Assembly: GCA_965223505.1 (NCBI GenBank)
Contig: CBDCWP010000044.1
Location: forward strand, 224,001 to 288,000
Length of the DNA: 64,000 nt
Reading direction: 5' to 3'
Origin: Planctomycetota bacterium
GTDB lineage: Bacteria; Planctomycetota; PLA2; JAEUHO01
Positions within the stretch are counted from its first letter, which is position 1, and every line of letters begins with the position of its first letter. Positions 2,926 to 23,082 of this stretch are shown here, in pieces. The notes beneath the pieces are model-generated. The model was not told where the DNA came from. It did no database searches and was given only the letters and a program-made list of their open reading frames with translations. Position numbers and translations under genes: made by a program.

Positions 2926-3735
2926 CTACTTGCCGAAGCCGATGCCCTTCAGCTTGTCGAGCGCCTTCTCTTTGAGCGCATCCGTCTCGGGCGTGCCGCC
3001 GCCGGGCAGCGCGAGCCCGTCCAACGCGTCGGCGCACGCCTGCTTCAGGCCCGTCAGCGACGTGAGCCGTCCGTCGAGCGTGCCCTGCACGAGCCCCGGC
3101 AGCTTGCCGGTTGCCGAAGCGCGCTTCAGGATCGACTCGATGAGAATGCCGGCGAGCTCGGAGAGCAATACGCCTTTGTCCGACTCCGTGCCGACGTCGT
3201 TCAGCTCGATCTTCTCGATGGGGATCTTCACCTCGCCGAGGTTGAGCTGCTTGACCGGCAACACCGACACGACCGTGTCTTCGATCACGAGCTTCTCGAT
3301 GATGAAGCGCTTGCCCTCGCTGTCGTCCTTGCTCGTGCCCTGAAATGCGGCGAGGTTCTCGAGAATCGTCCCGTAGTTCGATCGCTTCAGGTCCTGGATG
3401 AGCCGGATGCGGGGGCCGGTGAGCGTCAGCTGCGGGACCGCGACCACGTCGTCCATGAGCGACGAGAGCGAAACCTCGACCGCGCCGTTGCCCAGCTCGA
3501 AGAAGTTCGTCGCCGGATAGCCCTCGGGATTGGCAACGGCGAGATCGTCGAGCGAGACCGTGCCGCTGAAGAAGCCCACGTCGACGTCGTCGGCGGTGGT
3601 CGCCACTCCGAGCGCCTTCGATCCGGCCTTCTCGATGCCGGCTTTCGCCAGATCGTCGGCGTAGATGCCCACGACGACGAGGCCGACGATCAGGAGGACG
3701 ACGAGTCCGATGACGAGCTTGAGGAGGCGTTTCAT
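2926..3735 (-). CDS. AsmA/DUF748-like membrane-anchored protein
   Basis: N-terminal TM helix, then the ALGV...L.VANPEGYP pattern typical of AsmA-like N-terminal domains. Confidence 0.7.
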   Translation of the reverse strand: MKRLLKLVIGLVVLLIVGLVVVGIYADDLAKAGIEKAGSKALGVATTADDVDVGFFSGTVSLDDLAVANPEGYPATNFFELGNGAVEVSLSSLMDDVVAVPQLTLTGPRIRLIQDLKRSNYGTILENLAAFQGTSKDDSEGKRFIIEKLVIEDTVVSVLPVKQLNLGEVKIPIEKIELNDVGTESDKGVLLSELAGILIESILKRASATGKLPGLVQGTLDGRLTSLTGLKQACADALDGLALPGGGTPETDALKEKALDKLKGIGFGK

Positions 3736-3833
3736 GGGCGGCATCGTAGGGACCGGGATGACGGAGGACCCGTTCCTTCCGATCGCTCGCCCGACGGACT
3801 GGCGCCCGCGCCGCCGACGCGTATCCTCCCCGC

Positions 3834-4247
3834 ATGCGAACCCTCTCCTCCCTGGTCCTGATCGCGTGCGTCGTCGCGGCGTGCGGCGAGGCCGACAAGA
3901 CCTCCGAGCCCGAGACGCCGGCGCCGAGCGGCAAGCTCCGCGTCGAGTACTACGAGATCAGCAAGCAGTGACCTTTCTGCCAGAACATCGTGCGTGCGGT
4001 CGGCACGCTGCAGGAAGATCCTGCGTACAAGGACAAGATCGAGAGCGAGATCGTTTCGATGAGCTCGGAGAAGGGCAAGGCGTCCGACGCGCTCTACGAC
4101 TGGGGCGACCGGATGCACGGACTCGTCGTGCTCGGACCCGACGGCGACGTGCAGGCCGTGCTCAAGGGACACTCGTGGGGCGGCCGCGACGACGTGTCCA
4201 TTGCTTTGAACAAACTGAAAGAGACGATCGACCCGCTCTTGAAGTGA
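3834..4247 (+). CDS. Putative selenoprotein: thioredoxin-fold lipoprotein with UxxC motif (in-frame TGA 3969-3971)
   Basis: ATG 3834 with lipobox VAAC. Reads ..VEYYEISKQ-TGA-PFCQNIVRAV.. in frame with the 3990..4247 ORF; 137 aa. Hairpin follows the TGA. Confidence 0.85.
3972..4017 (+). promoter_or_regulatory. SECIS-like hairpin
   Basis: Lower stem CTTTCTGC/GCAGGAAG; upper stem GCGTGC/GCACGC; loop GGTCG starting 26 nt after the TGA. Confidence 0.7.
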
Positions 4248-4361
4248 AACGACCGGTGCGCTCGTGAACCGACGGATGTATCGGATTCGATGGGCTCGTC
4301 GCCGCGCCGGCCGTCTTGACGCACCTCTCTTGTTTAAAGTCTGCGGGAGAACATCGGTTAC

Positions 4362-4571
4362 GGGGGCCACGAGAAAAGCATTGCCAACCGGGGGAGAGTT
4401 CCGGTCGTATGAGCAAGGAAGCGAGCACGGGCAGAGAGCCCTAGGTGAAGAAACATGCCCCCCCCAGCAGAATTGAAGCCGCATGACGAAGTCGGACTGG
4501 CAGGAGGACTACGAGCCTCTGAGTGAGCCAAGCCGGCGGGGAGGGCTGGCAACTCCCTCTGCCCCATTTTT
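4362..4571 (+). ncRNA. Candidate structured cis-regulatory leader RNA, copy A (family not recognised)
   Basis: Shares ordered sequence blocks and stems with 51130-51296 upstream of a paralogous gene; ends in a GC-rich stem plus TTTTT. Confidence 0.6.
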
Positions 4572-4583
4572 CGAAGGACTTGC

Positions 4584-4931
4584 ATGGCACCGATCACGCT
4601 GACGAGACGAACGTTCATGGCCGCGACCGGCGCGACCGTGGGCGCGATCGCGCTCGTGGGATGCGGCGGCGGCTCGACGCCGACCGCGACGCCGATCGAT
4701 ACCAGCAAGGCGTGGCGGCTGTCCGGCGCGAGGCGCCGGATCTCCAACGCCGCCAAGAGCCACAACGCCAACAAGGTCTTCGCAACCCCCCTGGCGGCCC
4801 ATGTGGGCCGCGCGCACCCCGGCGACACGTCCAAGATCGTTCCGATGGACGTCAATCCGAACACGTGGTTGAAGCACTTCGGCGCCGGCGACCCTTGCGT
4901 CGACCTGCGTCAGATCGGCGACAAGCTGTAG
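4584..4931 (+). CDS. Small Tat-exported lipoprotein, unknown function (paralog of 50695..51111)
   Basis: TRRTFM twin-arginine motif and LVGC lipobox; conserved SNAAK.HN.NK.FAT..AA..GRAH.GDTSK core. Confidence 0.8.
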   Translation: MAPITLTRRTFMAATGATVGAIALVGCGGGSTPTATPIDTSKAWRLSGARRRISNAAKSHNANKVFATPLAAHVGRAHPGDTSKIVPMDVNPNTWLKHFGAGDPCVDLRQIGDKL

Positions 4932-4934
4932 CCG

Positions 4935-5627
4935 CTACTTCGGGTTCGTCGCCCAGAGCGTCGCTTCCGTGATGAAGCCGCGGTCGTGCATCGCGAGCAT
5001 GTCGACGATCATCTGCGCGACGTCGATCGCCTGGAGCTTCGTCGGGTTCTCCGGCCGTTCGCGCCCGCCGAAGCCGGTCTGCACCTCGCTCGGGTTGACC
5101 TGCATGACGCGCACATCGTGCTCCCGCAGCTCCGCGCGCCAGCACTCCGTCAATGCCGTGAGCGCAAACTTGCTCGCCGCGTAGGCGCCGCCGCCCTTGA
5201 AGCCCTTGCGCGCCGCCGTCGAGGCGACATTGACGATGTGACCGCTCGACTGGCTGATGAAGTGCTTCGCCGCGGCGCGCGCGACGAAGTAGGCGCCGAG
5301 CACGTTGACGCGTAGCGTCTTCTCGAAGTCGTCTCCGTCGCTGTCGACGAGCAGACCGAAGGTGCCGATCGCGGCGTTGTTGATCAAGACGTCCAGGCCG
5401 CCGAGCTCCGCGATCGCTTCGCTGACCATCATGTTCGCGTGGTCCTCGCGACCGACGTCGGCCTGGATCGGGTGGACGCCCAACTCCTCGGCCGCTTCGC
5501 GCAGCGCGGTCTCGTCGCGGCCGCAGATCGCCACGTCGGCGCCCTTGCCGTGGAGCATGCGCGCGGTCTCCTTGCCGATGCCGCGGCTGCCGCCGGTGAT
5601 GAGTACGCGGGCGTTCGAGAGATCCAT
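4935..5627 (-). CDS. SDR family oxidoreductase
   Basis: TGGSRGIG, NNAA and YAASK motifs. Confidence 0.95.
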   Translation of the reverse strand: MDLSNARVLITGGSRGIGKETARMLHGKGADVAICGRDETALREAAEELGVHPIQADVGREDHANMMVSEAIAELGGLDVLINNAAIGTFGLLVDSDGDDFEKTLRVNVLGAYFVARAAAKHFISQSSGHIVNVASTAARKGFKGGGAYAASKFALTALTECWRAELREHDVRVMQVNPSEVQTGFGGRERPENPTKLQAIDVAQMIVDMLAMHDRGFITEATLWATNPK

Positions 5628-5694
5628 GCCGTGCTCCGTGTCGTCCAGGTGCGGGATTCGCTATTCTGCGTTCGGTCGGAAGGAGGGACGAACG

Positions 5695-5952
5695 ATGGCC
5701 GGTATCGAATGGGCCGTTCTGATCCTCCAGGGCTACGTCGCGGCCGGCTTCCTCTTCGCCGTGCCGTTCGCCTTCGTCGGCGCCAAGCGCATCGACCCGG
5801 CGGCCGCCGAGGGAACGCTCGGGTTCCGACTGCTGATCATCCCCGGCGCGGCCCTGCTTTGGCCGCTGTTGATTCGACCGTGGTTGCAAGGCGCGGCGTA
5901 CCGCCCGGCGATTCGTGACGCGCACCGCGACGCGGCGGACACGGACGCATGA
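5695..5952 (+). CDS. Small two-TM membrane protein, first gene of Rieske/ferric reductase operon
   Basis: GGAGG upstream of ATG 5695; two hydrophobic segments; stop overlaps next ATG. Confidence 0.75.
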   Translation: MAGIEWAVLILQGYVAAGFLFAVPFAFVGAKRIDPAAAEGTLGFRLLIIPGAALLWPLLIRPWLQGAAYRPAIRDAHRDAADTDA

Positions 5953-18473: not shown

Positions 18474-20540
18474 ATGCGTACCGTCCGGTTCACTCTCCTG
18501 GTCCTCGTCCTCCTCCTCACGCACGTCGCGCTCCTGCTCGGTTGCGGAACCAGCGGAAAACCGAACGATCCAGCCGAGCCCGTCTTCTCGATGTCTCTCT
18601 TCGGCCCGAACCCGCATCTGATCACGAACCCGCACTTCCCGCTCGTGCCCGGCACCACGACGCTGTCGCAGTCGGAGACCGACGAAGGCATGGAGACCCT
18701 CGTCTCCGAGGTGCTCGCGCCCACGCGCGTCGTCGCCGGGCTCGCGTGTCGCGTCGTGCGCGTGCGGGAGTATCTAGGCGAGCTGCTGGTCGAGGACGCC
18801 CACGACTGGTACGCGCAGGACGCCGCCGGCAACGTCTGGTACATGGGCGAAGACGTCGTCAACTACGAGTACGACGACGACGACAACTTGGTCGACACCA
18901 ACGGCGACGGCTCTTGGGAGGCCGGACTCGACATCGACGGCGTCGGCACGCCCGCCGCGCCGGGCATCATCATGAAGTCCACCCTGGTGGTGGGGGACAC
19001 GTACCGGCAGGAGTTCTACCCGACCGTGGCCGAGGACATGGGCGGGATCGCCGCGCTCAACGTACCGGTTGCGCTCGCCTGCGGGACCAACTACACGTGC
19101 CTGCAGACCCGCGACTGGAACCTGCTGGAGCCCGGTGTCTTCGAGCGCAAGTTCTACGCCCCGGGCATCGGGGTCGTCGCCGAAGAGGTCGAGGGCACGG
19201 ACGAGCGCGTGGAGATGCGTGGTGTCTTCCTGCCGACACCGGTCAGCTTGCCGAATCAGGGCGACGCGACCTTCTCGAACCCCACCGAGATCACCAACCC
19301 CTACTTTCCGCTTGCCGTCGAGACCATGCGGGGGCTCGTCGTGCCGACGGAGGAAGGCGGGGAGACCGTGATCCAGGAGGTGCTCGACGAGACCCGCGTC
19401 GTGAACGGCGTCACCTGCCGCGTCTTGCGGGTGCGGGAGTACGAAGGCGACCTGCTCAAGGAGGACACCAAAGACTGGTTCGCGCAGGACGACGCGGGCA
19501 ACGTCTGGTACTTCGGCGAGGAGGTCGTGAACTACGAGTACGACGACGACGACAACCTCGTCGACACGAACGACGACGGCTCGTGGGAAGCGGGCGTCGA
19601 CGGCGCGCTGGCCGGTGTCCAGATGTGGGCGGCGCCGGCGATCGGCGTGTCCTACTACCAGGAGTTCTATGCCGGTGAGGCCGAGGACATGGCAGTGCCG
19701 ATCGCGACGGGCGTCTCGCTCACGCTTCGCAACGGGATCTCGTACGACAACTGCCTGAAGACACTCGAGTGGACGCCGCTCGAGCCGAGTGTGATCGAGT
19801 TCAAGTACTACGCGCCCGGGGTCGGCCTGATCCAGGAGCAGCCGCTCGACGGGGAGTCGGAGGGCATCGAGCTCTTGGGGGTTCTCGACACGAGCTTGGG
19901 CACGTTGCCGAACTTCGCCGCGGCGACGTTCAGCGTGCCGGAGGTCATCACGAACCCGTATCTGCCCTTCGTGCCCGGAACGACCTGGGACTACGAGGTC
20001 GAGACCGACGAGGGCACCGAGACGATCTTCGTCGAGGTCTTGGCCACGACGCGCGTCGTCAACGGGCTGACGTGCACGGTGGTGCGGGACCGCGTGTTCC
20101 TCGACGGCCTCGAGATCGAGGACACGCACGACTGGTACGCGCAGGATGACGCCGGCAACGTCTGGTACATGGGCGAGGACGTCATCAACTACGAGTACGA
20201 CGAGAACGGCGTCCTCATCGGCACCGACAACGAGGGCGCGTGGGAGGCCGGTGTCGACGGGGCGTTGCCGGGCATCATCATGTGGGCCGTTCCCACAGTC
20301 GGGACGTCGTACCGACAGGAGTTCTACGAGGACGAGGCCGAGGACATGGCGGTCGTCATTGCCACCGGCGTGAGCATCACGCTCGGCGACGGCACGATCT
20401 ACAACAACTGCGTGCAGGTCCTCGAGTGGTCGCCGCTGGGACCGGAGTCGCTGGAATACAAGTTCGCGGCGCCCGGCATCGGCGTGGTTCTGGAGCTCAA
20501 GCCGTCTTCCGAAGAGGCCGTCGAGCTCGTGGGGCCCTGA
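18474..20540 (+). CDS. Acidic lipoprotein with three tandem repeats of about 220 aa
   Basis: LLGC lipobox; repeats start at ITNP (18621, 19290, 19947), each with DW.AQD.AGNVWY.GE, WEAG.DG, Y.QEFY...AED and APG.G. Confidence 0.85.
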   Translation: MRTVRFTLLVLVLLLTHVALLLGCGTSGKPNDPAEPVFSMSLFGPNPHLITNPHFPLVPGTTTLSQSETDEGMETLVSEVLAPTRVVAGLACRVVRVREYLGELLVEDAHDWYAQDAAGNVWYMGEDVVNYEYDDDDNLVDTNGDGSWEAGLDIDGVGTPAAPGIIMKSTLVVGDTYRQEFYPTVAEDMGGIAALNVPVALACGTNYTCLQTRDWNLLEPGVFERKFYAPGIGVVAEEVEGTDERVEMRGVFLPTPVSLPNQGDATFSNPTEITNPYFPLAVETMRGLVVPTEEGGETVIQEVLDETRVVNGVTCRVLRVREYEGDLLKEDTKDWFAQDDAGNVWYFGEEVVNYEYDDDDNLVDTNDDGSWEAGVDGALAGVQMWAAPAIGVSYYQEFYAGEAEDMAVPIATGVSLTLRNGISYDNCLKTLEWTPLEPSVIEFKYYAPGVGLIQEQPLDGESEGIELLGVLDTSLGTLPNFAAATFSVPEVITNPYLPFVPGTTWDYEVETDEGTETIFVEVLATTRVVNGLTCTVVRDRVFLDGLEIEDTHDWYAQDDAGNVWYMGEDVINYEYDENGVLIGTDNEGAWEAGVDGALPGIIMWAVPTVGTSYRQEFYEDEAEDMAVVIATGVSITLGDGTIYNNCVQVLEWSPLGPESLEYKFAAPGIGVVLELKPSSEEAVELVGP

Positions 20541-21011: not shown

Positions 21012-21752
21012 TCAGCGGACGCGGCGGAACACGTCGAGAGAGAATCCCATGGTCTCGCGTCCCCACCGCTGCTGTGCGGCGTTCCACGCCCGCTTCTCGG
21101 CGATCATTGCATCGACGGCCGGATCGCCGGCGTGCGCGTCGGCATACGACTCGTGGTTCGCGAGCACGGTGCCTTCGAGTCGATCCCATGCCTCTCGGGA
21201 TGCGATCTGATGCCGCTCGCTCTCGAAGCCGCATCGCCGCGCGACATCGAGAAACGACTCGCGATCGCGCAGTGCGTCCGCGGGCAACCCCGTTGCCTCG
21301 AGGTACTCGACGGGCGGCGGCTGCATCCAGAAACCGTCGCCGTAGATCAGCCACCCGTCGCCGCGAAGCCAGCGCGCGTAGAGCCGCAGCGTCTCGTCGA
21401 GTCGGTCGTCTCGATACGGCCCGCCGTTTGCGATGACCACATCGAACGAATCGTCCGCGAACGCCAGGTCGTCGGCATCGCACGCGAGCCAGGCCGCGTC
21501 GGCGTCAGGCACTCGGGCCTGGAGGGCCGATCGCGCGAGCCCGAGCGCCGCCTCGGATCGATCGACGCCCGTGATCCGCGCGCCGAGCCGTTCTGCGAGA
21601 TCGATCAACGTCGTGCCCCGGCCGCAACCGACGTCGAGCGCCGACAACCCTGCGGGCAGCGGCAGCGACGCGAGCAGCTCCCTTACGTCCGCAGCGGAGA
21701 CCGGCCCCCACATGTCGAGGCCGGCGTAGTGATCGATGTCGCTCCGGCCCAT
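21012..21752 (-). CDS. Class I SAM-dependent methyltransferase
   Basis: LDVGCGRG, TGVD and FADDSFDVV motifs. Confidence 0.9.
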   Translation of the reverse strand: MGRSDIDHYAGLDMWGPVSAADVRELLASLPLPAGLSALDVGCGRGTTLIDLAERLGARITGVDRSEAALGLARSALQARVPDADAAWLACDADDLAFADDSFDVVIANGGPYRDDRLDETLRLYARWLRGDGWLIYGDGFWMQPPPVEYLEATGLPADALRDRESFLDVARRCGFESERHQIASREAWDRLEGTVLANHESYADAHAGDPAVDAMIAEKRAWNAAQQRWGRETMGFSLDVFRRVR

Positions 21753-21810: not shown

Positions 21811-23082
21811 ATGCGCAATCTGATTCTCGCGTGCGCCGTGCTGGCGCTCTCGCCCGTCGTCCTTGCCGAGGAGCTCACCGAAGCGTCCGCTCCGATCTTC
21901 TCCGAGCCGATCCAGGTCATGGCCGACGGCGTCCCGATCGCGGTCGAGGCGCCCGGATTCGCCTGCCCGACCTTCCACGACGTGGACGGAGACGGATTGC
22001 GTGACCTCGTGGTCGGGCAGTTCAAAGAGGGGAAGCTCCGACTCTTCAAGAACGTCGGCAGCGCCAAGGCGCCCAAGTTCGCGAAGGGCGAGTGGCTCAT
22101 GACCGGCGAGAAGGCCGCGGTCGTTCCCGGCGTGTGGTGATGCACCAGCTCCACGCCGCAGTTTGCGGACATGAACGGTGACGGCCGGCTCGACATCGTC
22201 TCCGGTTGCTACAGCCAACGCGGGCAAGCGATGGTGGCGCCCGTCTGGGTGCTCTACCGCAACGAGGCCGGCGACTTCGCCGAAGCGGTCGCGCTCAAGA
22301 ACGACGCCGACGAGCACATCGTCGCGCGGGACATGGAGGGCGTGGTGACGGAGCGCATCTGCACCGAGCCCTTCGCCTTCGACTGGGACGCGGACGGGGA
22401 CCTCGACTTCGTCATCGGGAACTTCAGCGGAGCGTTCCTGCTAGCGATCAACGTCGGGACGGCGAAGGAGCCGAAATTCGAGGGCAAGCCCGAGTACCTG
22501 ACCAACGCCGCGGGCGAGCGCCTGAAGGTCAACGGCAATCACAGCGCGCCCTTCCTGGTGGACTGGGACGGCGACGGCGACGTGGACCTGCTCAGCGGCA
22601 CCGGCGGGGGCGGGGTCCAGATCGCCGAGAACGATCCGGGCGAGGACGGCGCGCACCGCTTCTCCGACTTCCGCGAGCTGATCCCCGCACCCGACATGCG
22701 CGCGTCGGCGGCGATCTGTCCGCCCGACACACCGGTGACGCCCGCGTCATCGTGGCGCATCTGCGTGGCGGATTACGACGGCGACGGCAAGCTCGACATC
22801 ATCGTCGGGGACTGCTTGCGCCGCAGTCATCCCAAGGGCGAGCTGACCGTCGAAGAAGCAACGGCGGAACAGGCGAAGTGGATCGAGAAGAACAACGAGT
22901 TGCGCGACGAGATGACCGCGCTGCGCAAGCAGCTGGCCGAGGCGACCGAGAACGAGGCGCAGGAGGAGCTGGCCGCCAAGGTCAAGGAGCTCAACCAGGC
23001 GCGCAGCGACCACTACCGGGCCCGCAGCGAGTTCATCGACGCCGTGTCCACCGGCCACGTCTGGGTCTACCTTCGCAAGTAG
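21811..23082 (+). CDS. Putative selenoprotein: exported FG-GAP/VCBS repeat protein with UC motif (in-frame TGA 22138-22140)
   Basis: Signal peptide and first D.DGDG repeat before the TGA; VPGVW-TGA-CTSSTPQFADMNGDG continues in frame into four more repeats; 423 aa. Confidence 0.85.
22141..22180 (+). promoter_or_regulatory. SECIS-like hairpin
   Basis: CACC/GGTG basal stem; CCGCA/TGCGG upper stem; loop GTT 20 nt after the TGA. Confidence 0.6.

Follow-up and report, generated by a model that had tools for sequence, protein, structure and literature searches.

Is the TGA codon at positions 22138-22140 of this DNA the end of a gene, or a codon for selenocysteine (Sec, U) inside one? The window, meaning here the whole stretch of 64,000 nucleotides from Planctomycetota bacterium (assembly GCA_965223505.1, contig CBDCWP010000044.1, positions 224,001 to 288,000 of the forward strand), contains at 21811-23082 on the (+) strand a gene for a protein with FG-GAP/VCBS repeats that is interrupted by this codon. 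In an initial annotation the TGA was proposed to encode Sec, forming a redox-active pair with the cysteine (Cys) encoded next to it. According to the comparison of proteins, codons and predicted RNA hairpins described below, the TGA is very probably read as Sec, and the locus is then one intact gene for an exported propeller. The explanation as a whole, a Sec-containing exported propeller with the U-C pair as its redox centre, is considered likely and the best one available; the redox function of the pair is weighed separately.

Reading frame and in-frame TGA

The region 21811-23082 (+) constitutes a single frame of 423 codons, from ATG at 21811 to TAG at 23080-23082, with exactly one internal stop. 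Immediately after this sole in-frame TGA comes TGC, the surrounding sequence being ...VVPGVW-TGA-TGC(C)-TSSTPQFADMNGDG. Under translation table 11 the frame is split into an open reading frame (ORF) at 21736/21811..22140 and a second ORF of 303 aa at 22171..23082. The latter lacks a signal peptide and begins at M121, partway through the calcium loop (DMNGDG) of the second repeat, which bears out what the initial annotation had said of the downstream frame. The features on which the decoding question turns are the following.

21811..23082 (+): whole gene, 423 codons including Sec110, then TAG; predicted exported five-bladed FG-GAP/VCBS propeller selenoprotein
22138..22140 (+): TGA, predicted selenocysteine codon U110; Cys in 21 of 22 homologues, TGA in 68 of 75 loci, Sec machinery in the genome
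22141..22143 (+): TGC, Cys111, vicinal partner of Sec; column nearly invariant, with TGC or TGT after TGA in 68 of 68 Sec-type loci

Homologues at the protein and DNA level

When 5.8 billion proteins were searched, 1454 matches were obtained, of which the best 120 were examined. Only 23 of the 120 covered at least 88% of the query; the other 97 covered at most 77%, in most cases precisely the 72% encoded after the TGA, which is the signature of gene callers halting at the same codon. Twenty-two of the 23 long matches were aligned (P0105 was left out), and the column pair corresponding to U110-C111 was Cys-Cys in 21 full-length homologues and Gly-Asp in one (P0116).

At the DNA level, six-frame searches reading through stops were used. 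Matches were obtained in 23 of the 41 genomes of the window's lineage, and every match spanning the site had exactly one TGA; in the order around Novipirellula, 14 of 81 genomes gave a match at E <=1e-25, mostly with one TGA. A scan of one genome per species yielded 79 loci. In the 75 related loci whose codons were aligned, TGA-TGY was found in 68 and TGY-TGY in seven (L052, L055, L065, L070, L073, L123 and L124), with neither TAA nor TAG in any; L038 and L129, which were misaligned in the automated pass (L038 reads N-W-U-C), and L086, in which the TGA is one column off, were left out of the counts, and the loci beyond the 75 were distant FG-GAP proteins lacking the motif. The same TGA-TGY at the same column in 68 related loci places the in-frame TGA beyond chance. 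The initial annotation had staked its Sec-Cys reading on Cys being found at this position in homologues and on CC or UC forms appearing in an alignment, and both were found, as Cys-Cys in 21 of 22 proteins and as TGA-TGY against TGY-TGY in 68 and seven loci.

In L086 (near 3297, in a metagenome-assembled genome (MAG) of Gemmataceae) the TGA lies one column before the usual site, in I-P-C-G-U-S-R-P-E-F-T-P-Q-F, and this locus would be a C-G-U variant.

Three flavours of the motif were distinguished, namely VPGVW-UC-TSSTPQ (the window's type), VPxG-UC-[VI]GFGPQ and NW-UC-IGMGSQ, in addition to IY-[UC]C-IGSSPQ. The carriers are labelled mainly Planctomycetota and Verrucomicrobiota, with a few MAGs under other labels. 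A quick maximum-likelihood tree was constructed from 74 rows with the U-C site masked and L024, a near-copy of L023, dropped. On this tree the Cys label needs at least four changes, of which at least three are forced by well-supported branches, and the Cys forms are nested among Sec forms; within the VPGVW-UC clade, the window's protein clusters with those of two genomes from its own family. A single U-C family gene is present in the window's genome. Three other genomes (G026, G031 and G115) carry several paralogues each, with up to three U-C genes of differing motif flavours.

These data also bear on the reading of the locus as a pseudogene, that is, an ordinary FG-GAP gene with a recent nonsense mutation. 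Gene callers do split the gene, and its database entry (P0002) is the 303-aa product, as such a mutation would have it; against this stand the same-column TGA in 68 loci from several phyla, both halves conserved in frame, and the consistent absence of TAA and TAG. The pseudogene reading, to which almost no credence is given, is effectively refuted by the comparative data (68 TGA-TGY loci, no TAA/TAG).

Sec decoding capacity of the genome

The assembly that contains the window comprises 5.15 Mb and is 92% complete. A tRNA-Sec was detected at 69.2 bits (cut-off, 47), with the anticodon TCA according to ARAGORN, and SelA (507.2 bits), SelB (335.7 bits) and SelD (338.1 bits) were all found above their curated cut-offs; SelD itself has one in-frame TGA. 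All four components of the Sec decoding machinery are thus present in this genome.

SECIS-like hairpin downstream of the TGA

In bacteria the consensus selenocysteine insertion sequence (bSECIS) has a stem of at least 4 bp and a loop of 3-9 nt whose first two positions include a G, with G or U after it (PMC13188914), together with a spacing of 16-37 nt between UGA and loop and a minimum free energy (MFE) of <=-7.5 kcal/mol (PMC13188914, Fig. 2 legend). The corresponding element of the window is as follows.

22152..22173 (+): SECIS-like hairpin; stem CCGC 22156-22159 / GCGG 22165-22168, loop AGUUU 22160-22164

The loop can be closed to GUU by an A-U pair. Nineteen nucleotides lie between the UGA and the loop, and the hairpin is located in the P-Q-F-A-D codons (P-Q-x-[VA]-D in the family). 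With a stem of 4-5 bp, a loop of 3-5 nt, G as its first or second nucleotide followed by U, and the 19-nt spacing, the element falls within all the geometric limits of the consensus.

Since the window hairpin is unremarkable by energy alone, the evidence for a SECIS has to come from comparing genes. For this, 55 Sec-type sequences were aligned without gaps, L080 being excluded for a one-codon insertion. Pairing was found in 84.4% of the 385 cells and fell to 27-41% when the 3' partners were slid by 1-3 columns. Changes on both sides occurred at five of the seven pairs, and none of 500 shuffles reached the observed covariation score. CCA...GUG (A-U) was present in 44 sequences, as against CCG...GCG (G-C) in six and CCG...GUG (G-U) in three, so that the second position of Val/Ala varies in step with the third position of the Pro codon, where changes are synonymous; C-G pairs were changed to U-A in L032 and L063, and also in L068. 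Complete pairing of the four-pair core was seen in 66 of 68 Sec-type genes versus 0 of 7 Cys-type genes. Where the stem contains a valine codon, it is GTG in every Sec-type gene (58 of 58) and GTC in every Cys-type gene (3 of 3), and two Cys-type genes keep the P-Q-L-[AV]-D peptide but use GCT or GTC, breaking the stem. The covariation that the initial annotation had pointed to as a check on the SECIS is accordingly present, in the compensatory changes (0 of 500 shuffles) and in the distribution of the core pairs (66/68 versus 0/7).

Several results count the other way. The MFE is borderline relative to -7.5 kcal/mol, at -7.3 kcal/mol for the 31-nt hairpin and -8.2 for a 39-nt segment; the energy of the 31-nt hairpin is ordinary (z, -0.80; matched by 43 of 200 shuffles), and for the fold of 101 nt z is +1.10. 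Rfam gave no family at its gathering thresholds over the window, and near the site only a chance match with E = 7.3. Coding constraint and shared descent account for part of the pairing signal, as the sequences are related and the stem lies over conserved codons, and the Cys-type control is small (n = 7 genes).

The same evidence was weighed against another fate of the UGA, either read-through without Sec, by near-cognate insertion of Trp or Cys, or termination followed by re-initiation to give two products. Sequence by itself cannot prove the inserted residue, and the window hairpin is weak, which leaves some room for read-through of this kind; it has to be set against the full Sec machinery of the genome, the Cys at this site in homologues without TGA, and a stem kept at the codon level only in TGA-bearing genes. 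As for two products, the downstream one would start inside a blade without a signal peptide. Both outcomes are considered very unlikely. For decoding as Sec, the proposed sequence of events is that SelB and tRNA-Sec would decode UGA 22138-22140, directed by the in-frame SECIS hairpin with its core at 22156-22168. The Sec-Cys reading of the initial annotation is strongly supported by the Cys-Cys homologues, the TGA-TGY loci, the Sec machinery and the SECIS covariation taken together.

Domain layout and predicted structure

The N-terminus, MRNLILACAVLALSPVVLA/EE, resembles a cleavable signal peptide as judged by eye from the translation, and the N-termini of relatives are comparably hydrophobic. 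Five D-x-[DN]-x-DG-x-x-D loops were located at residues 57-65, 120-128, 191-199, 251-259 and 321-329, one upstream and four downstream of the TGA. In Pfam, FG-GAP_3 (PF13517) was matched at 81.6 bits against a cut-off of 26.9 and FG-GAP (PF01839) at 37.6 against 22.1; with both scores above the gathering thresholds and five repeated loops, the protein belongs to the FG-GAP/VCBS repeat class. An NCBIfam scan of the protein returned no model at its cut-off. No thioredoxin-type Pfam or NCBIfam match was found in it, and with a U-C motif on a propeller fold it is not a thioredoxin-fold UxxC/CxxU selenoprotein. The remaining features of the gene are listed below.

21811..21867 (+): predicted signal peptide, residues 1-19, MRNLILACAVLALSPVVLA, read from the translation
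21979..22005 (+): calcium-binding-type loop of blade 1, DVDGDGLRD; D and G columns invariant or nearly so
22168..22194 (+): calcium-binding-type loop of blade 2, DMNGDGRLD; the table-11 downstream ORF starts within it
22381..22407 (+): calcium-binding-type loop of blade 3, DWDADGDLD; from the translation and family alignment
22561..22587 (+): calcium-binding-type loop of blade 4, DWDGDGDVD; from the translation and family alignment
22771..22797 (+): calcium-binding-type loop of blade 5, DYDGDGKLD; from the translation and family alignment
22849..23025 (+): helical hairpin inserted in blade 5, residues 347-405; AlphaFold2 secondary structure, with a predicted local distance difference test (pLDDT) value of about 97
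23035..23079 (+): C-terminal strands with the signature G-[HFY]-V-W-[LV]-Y-x-[RQ]-K, presumably closing the propeller; G415, V417 and W418 conserved; AlphaFold2

AlphaFold2 was run on a 64-sequence alignment and gave a model with pLDDT 90.8 and a predicted template-modelling (TM) score, pTM, of 0.89, in which five groups of four strands are present; the last blade contains the helical hairpin (347-377 and 381-405), and the closing strands carry the G-x-V-W-x-Y-x-R-K end. In a Foldseek search of the PDB no close solved relative was found. FG-GAP propellers (UmbA4, Psathyrella lectin, CRTAC1, integrins and TcB) were matched at TM 0.3-0.4, and five-bladed GH43 enzymes at a target-normalised TM of 0.45-0.54. 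The protein is not a seven-bladed propeller of the integrin type, having five repeats, five blade-like strand groups and TM 0.3-0.4 to seven-bladed structures.

By repeat register, the U-C pair is located in the loop between blades 1 and 2; the innermost strand of blade 2 starts at a Pro 4-5 residues further on. The corresponding loop of integrin-type propellers is on the face opposite the calcium loops, and by this analogy U110-C111 would lie on that face as well. The invariant or near-invariant columns of the family are the Asp and Gly of the calcium loops, scaffold Gly, Pro, Asn, Tyr and Trp, and C110-C111; the other conserved columns belonging to calcium loops or scaffold, the U-C pair is the only conserved non-scaffold candidate for a functional motif.

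The layout read earlier from the sequence (signal peptide, one FG-GAP repeat, VPGVW-TGA-C and four more repeats) was accurate, as judged from the five loops and the Pfam scores. The insertion described there as a coiled coil does exist, but it is a helical hairpin (H347-377/H381-405) in the AlphaFold2 model, followed by two closing strands. The term adhesion-type scaffold refers to the class of fold rather than to a function.

Domain fusions, gene neighbourhood and function of the U-C pair

Members of the IY-[UC]C subfamily carry, after the propeller, the N-terminal domain of DsbD (PF11412; Pfam cut-off, 25 bits), with the following scores.

L053, Sec-type: PF11412 at 37.4 bits
L057, Sec-type: PF11412 at 36.7 bits
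L061, Sec-type: PF11412 at 35.9 bits
L052, Cys-type: PF11412 at 30.1 bits

L055 has the same C-x4-C motif with PF11412 below the threshold. Both catalytic cysteines of DsbD_N are invariant in 8 of 8 aligned domains. A search of this region with the L057 protein recovered only its own truncated database entry, P0386 (PF13517 and PF11412). L053 further possesses a C-terminal TlpA/ResA-like thioredoxin-fold domain (AhpC-TSA, 64 bits) with a second in-frame TGA in W-U-G-P-C. These fusions suggest that the U-C pair is a redox centre served by a periplasmic thiol relay.

L053 as a whole (3001-5712, in a Planctomycetaceae MAG) is a candidate double selenoprotein of 904 residues, consisting of the U-C propeller, DsbD_N, helical repeats and the TlpA/ResA-like domain, and a SelO gene is located divergently upstream. 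In L061 (2917-5700), past the propeller and DsbD_N, a TGA is found at residue 680 (D-W-L-U-L-C-L-H), followed by about 248 in-frame residues with no stop and no Pfam match; this TGA is either a second Sec site (U-x-C) or part of a separate gene in the same frame.

Two stand-alone DsbD-type proteins are encoded in the window's genome, one of which has a TGA at the first position of the CxxC of its gamma domain (W-U-A-T-C). This locus lies outside the window (G000:C11, from L138 1033-3177 into L140 5-265) and encodes DsbD_N (65.6 bits) and a CcdA-like membrane part. The table-11 ORF ends with ...LLDFTADW-TGA; reading on adds W-U-A-T-C and 86 residues of a thioredoxin-like gamma domain, and a UCCAG-GUC-CUGGA hairpin (GUC loop) is situated about 24 nt past the TGA. 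The protein is probably a Sec-containing DsbD, and the DsbD/TlpA thiol relay of the window's organism appears itself to use Sec.

If the vicinal Sec110-Cys111 in the loop leading to the innermost strand of blade 2 functions as these fusions suggest, it would most likely cycle between the selenolate/thiol form and an eight-membered selenenylsulfide ring. The protein would then be a redox protein of the periplasm or the extracellular space, with the pair as the centre that catalyses the reaction or accepts the electrons and that is kept reduced by a DsbD-type thiol relay.

Two findings tell against this function. The DsbD_N fusions are confined to one subfamily (5 of 75 loci) that lies outside the window's clade, and no conserved neighbourhood was detected, Pfam analysis of 105 flanking ORFs from 55 loci being heterogeneous with no recurring partner. 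A single peroxiredoxin was found beside L023. On balance, from sequence comparison and fusions in one subfamily, the chances that the U-C pair is a redox centre are put at about even. In the earlier description of a redox-active pair, it is the Sec-Cys pair that stands; the activity is suggested by the DsbD_N and TlpA-like fusions of one subfamily.

Around the gene, Pfam analysis of nine neighbours in the window identified a methyltransferase, a DUF454 protein and an SLC12-type permease. For a permease encoded nearby, the closest relatives with a name are MAGs carrying the label Deltaproteobacteria (69% identity). The window also contains, at 18474-20540 (+), a gene for a secreted protein of 688 aa with three internal repeats of about 210 residues and acidic D-D-D-D-N-L-V-D-T-N segments, for which no Pfam match was found.

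With Sec inserted, the pair could instead bind or hand over a soft metal or metalloid (Hg, Cu(I), As, Se or Te), the propeller being a periplasmic chaperone or sensor. Relays of the DsbD/ScsB type also serve copper tolerance, which counts for such a metal site. So does the metal-related nature of catalogued selenoproteins with adjacent Cys and Sec, namely CopZ-family GxUC, MerB-like SaoL, HgcA, and MbdU with CU (PMC13188914, Table 1). Nevertheless, no other conserved His, Cys or Met that could serve as a ligand is found near the U-C in the family alignment, no metal-resistance genes recur beside the gene, and the fused partners are thiol-disulfide relay domains, so that a metal site is considered unlikely.

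A purely structural role, in which the Se-S bond would stiffen the ligand-binding loop of a lectin- or adhesin-like propeller, is thought less probable still. It agrees with the best structural neighbours (FG-GAP lectins, CRTAC1, integrins and UmbA4) and with the peptidoglycan-binding or dockerin domains carried by some members according to precomputed Pfam assignments. However, Sec is costly and is found overwhelmingly at catalytic redox sites (PMC13188914, section 7); it has been retained in 68 of 75 loci with at least four Sec/Cys switches on the tree, and the DsbD_N and TlpA-like fusions have no obvious structural rationale. Segments of the peptidoglycan-binding type (PF01471, precomputed Pfam) occur in L060 (2977-4428, as an insertion), P0054, P0091 and P0100, and fit a periplasmic, wall-associated location.

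Returning to the redox reading, a more specific proposal is offered tentatively: the family may represent a new class of exported redox enzyme, a calcium-stabilised five-bladed propeller with a catalytic Sec-Cys selenenylsulfide at its central face, recharged by a DsbD/TlpA relay and directed at a periplasmic or extracellular oxidant or chalcogen compound. The DsbD_N and Sec-bearing TlpA-like fusions make this a concrete and testable hypothesis of function.

Comparison with known systems

To our knowledge, the bacterial selenoproteins described so far are nearly all oxidoreductases with a thioredoxin fold or a metal cofactor. No FG-GAP, VCBS, propeller, PF13517 or PF01839 entry was found among the 119 selenoprotein families and subfamilies of a 2026 review (PMC13188914, Table 1), in agreement with the earlier description of this protein as an unusual home for Sec. 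The names FG-GAP, VCBS and repeat do not occur in the BSepDB paper or its supplement (about 4 million characters), nor do any of six motif strings, and the deep-Sep paper and supplements contain no FG-GAP, VCBS, propeller or integrin entry. A full-text literature search, with bioRxiv supplements and subscription-only papers outside its reach, retrieved no FG-GAP/VCBS selenoprotein and no periplasmic vicinal selenenylsulfide. The decoding mechanism is the ordinary bacterial one, and the protein family is absent from the selenoprotein catalogues checked; the additions made here are the control of Sec against Cys codons at the DNA level and the functional lead from the fusions.

Sec on an exported integrin-like propeller, in a large family that spans several phyla, would widen the range of scaffolds known to use it. 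Public annotation cuts the genes of this family at the TGA, the window's entry being a 303-aa fragment and most database relatives beginning just past the site, and selenoproteome counts for Planctomycetota, Verrucomicrobiota and the window's lineage are therefore too low.

The gene resembles bacterial selenoprotein genes with a SECIS inside the ORF, of which E. coli fdhF is the paradigm, in its in-frame UGA aligned to Cys, the full Sec machinery, and a small hairpin that follows closely, spaced by 16-37 nt and bearing G[U/G] in its apical loop. It differs in that the protein is not an oxidoreductase of known type and in that the hairpin core is only 4-5 bp and built from conserved P-Q-x-V/A-D codons. 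The Cys-Cys members of the family (for example P0082 of Bremerella sp. and L070 of Novipirellula rosea), annotated only as VCBS repeat-containing or hypothetical proteins, have the architecture of the window's protein at 30-42% identity, with a signal peptide, five FG-GAP blades, a helical hairpin, the G-x-V-W-L-Y-x-R-K end and the motif in the same position, but have Cys in place of Sec and lack the downstream hairpin (0 of 7). The FG-GAP/VCBS propellers of integrin alpha, Psathyrella velutina lectin, CRTAC1, TcB and UmbA4, which were the top Foldseek matches, have the same D-x-D-x-DG calcium-type loops but seven blades rather than five, and we know of none that carries Sec.

Mammalian thioredoxin reductase possesses a C-terminal Gly-Cys-Sec-Gly centre that forms an eight-membered selenenylsulfide ring and is a mobile redox centre. 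The window's protein likewise has adjacent Cys and Sec able to form such a ring, but in the order Sec-Cys and in an internal propeller loop instead of a flexible C-terminal tail; it is exported, has no flavoprotein domain and is not homologous. Should the new class of redox enzyme be real, it would be a non-thioredoxin, extracytoplasmic counterpart of that Cys-Sec centre. A further parallel is with the partners of DsbD alpha (DsbC, DsbG and CcmG) and the TlpA/ResA reductants, in that one propeller subfamily is fused to DsbD_N with both catalytic cysteines and, in a single case, to a TlpA-like U-x-x-C domain, as would be expected of proteins that belong to the same thiol relay. Known clients of DsbD_N are thioredoxin-fold proteins with CxxC, whereas the presumed client in the fused subfamily is a beta-propeller with a vicinal U-C.

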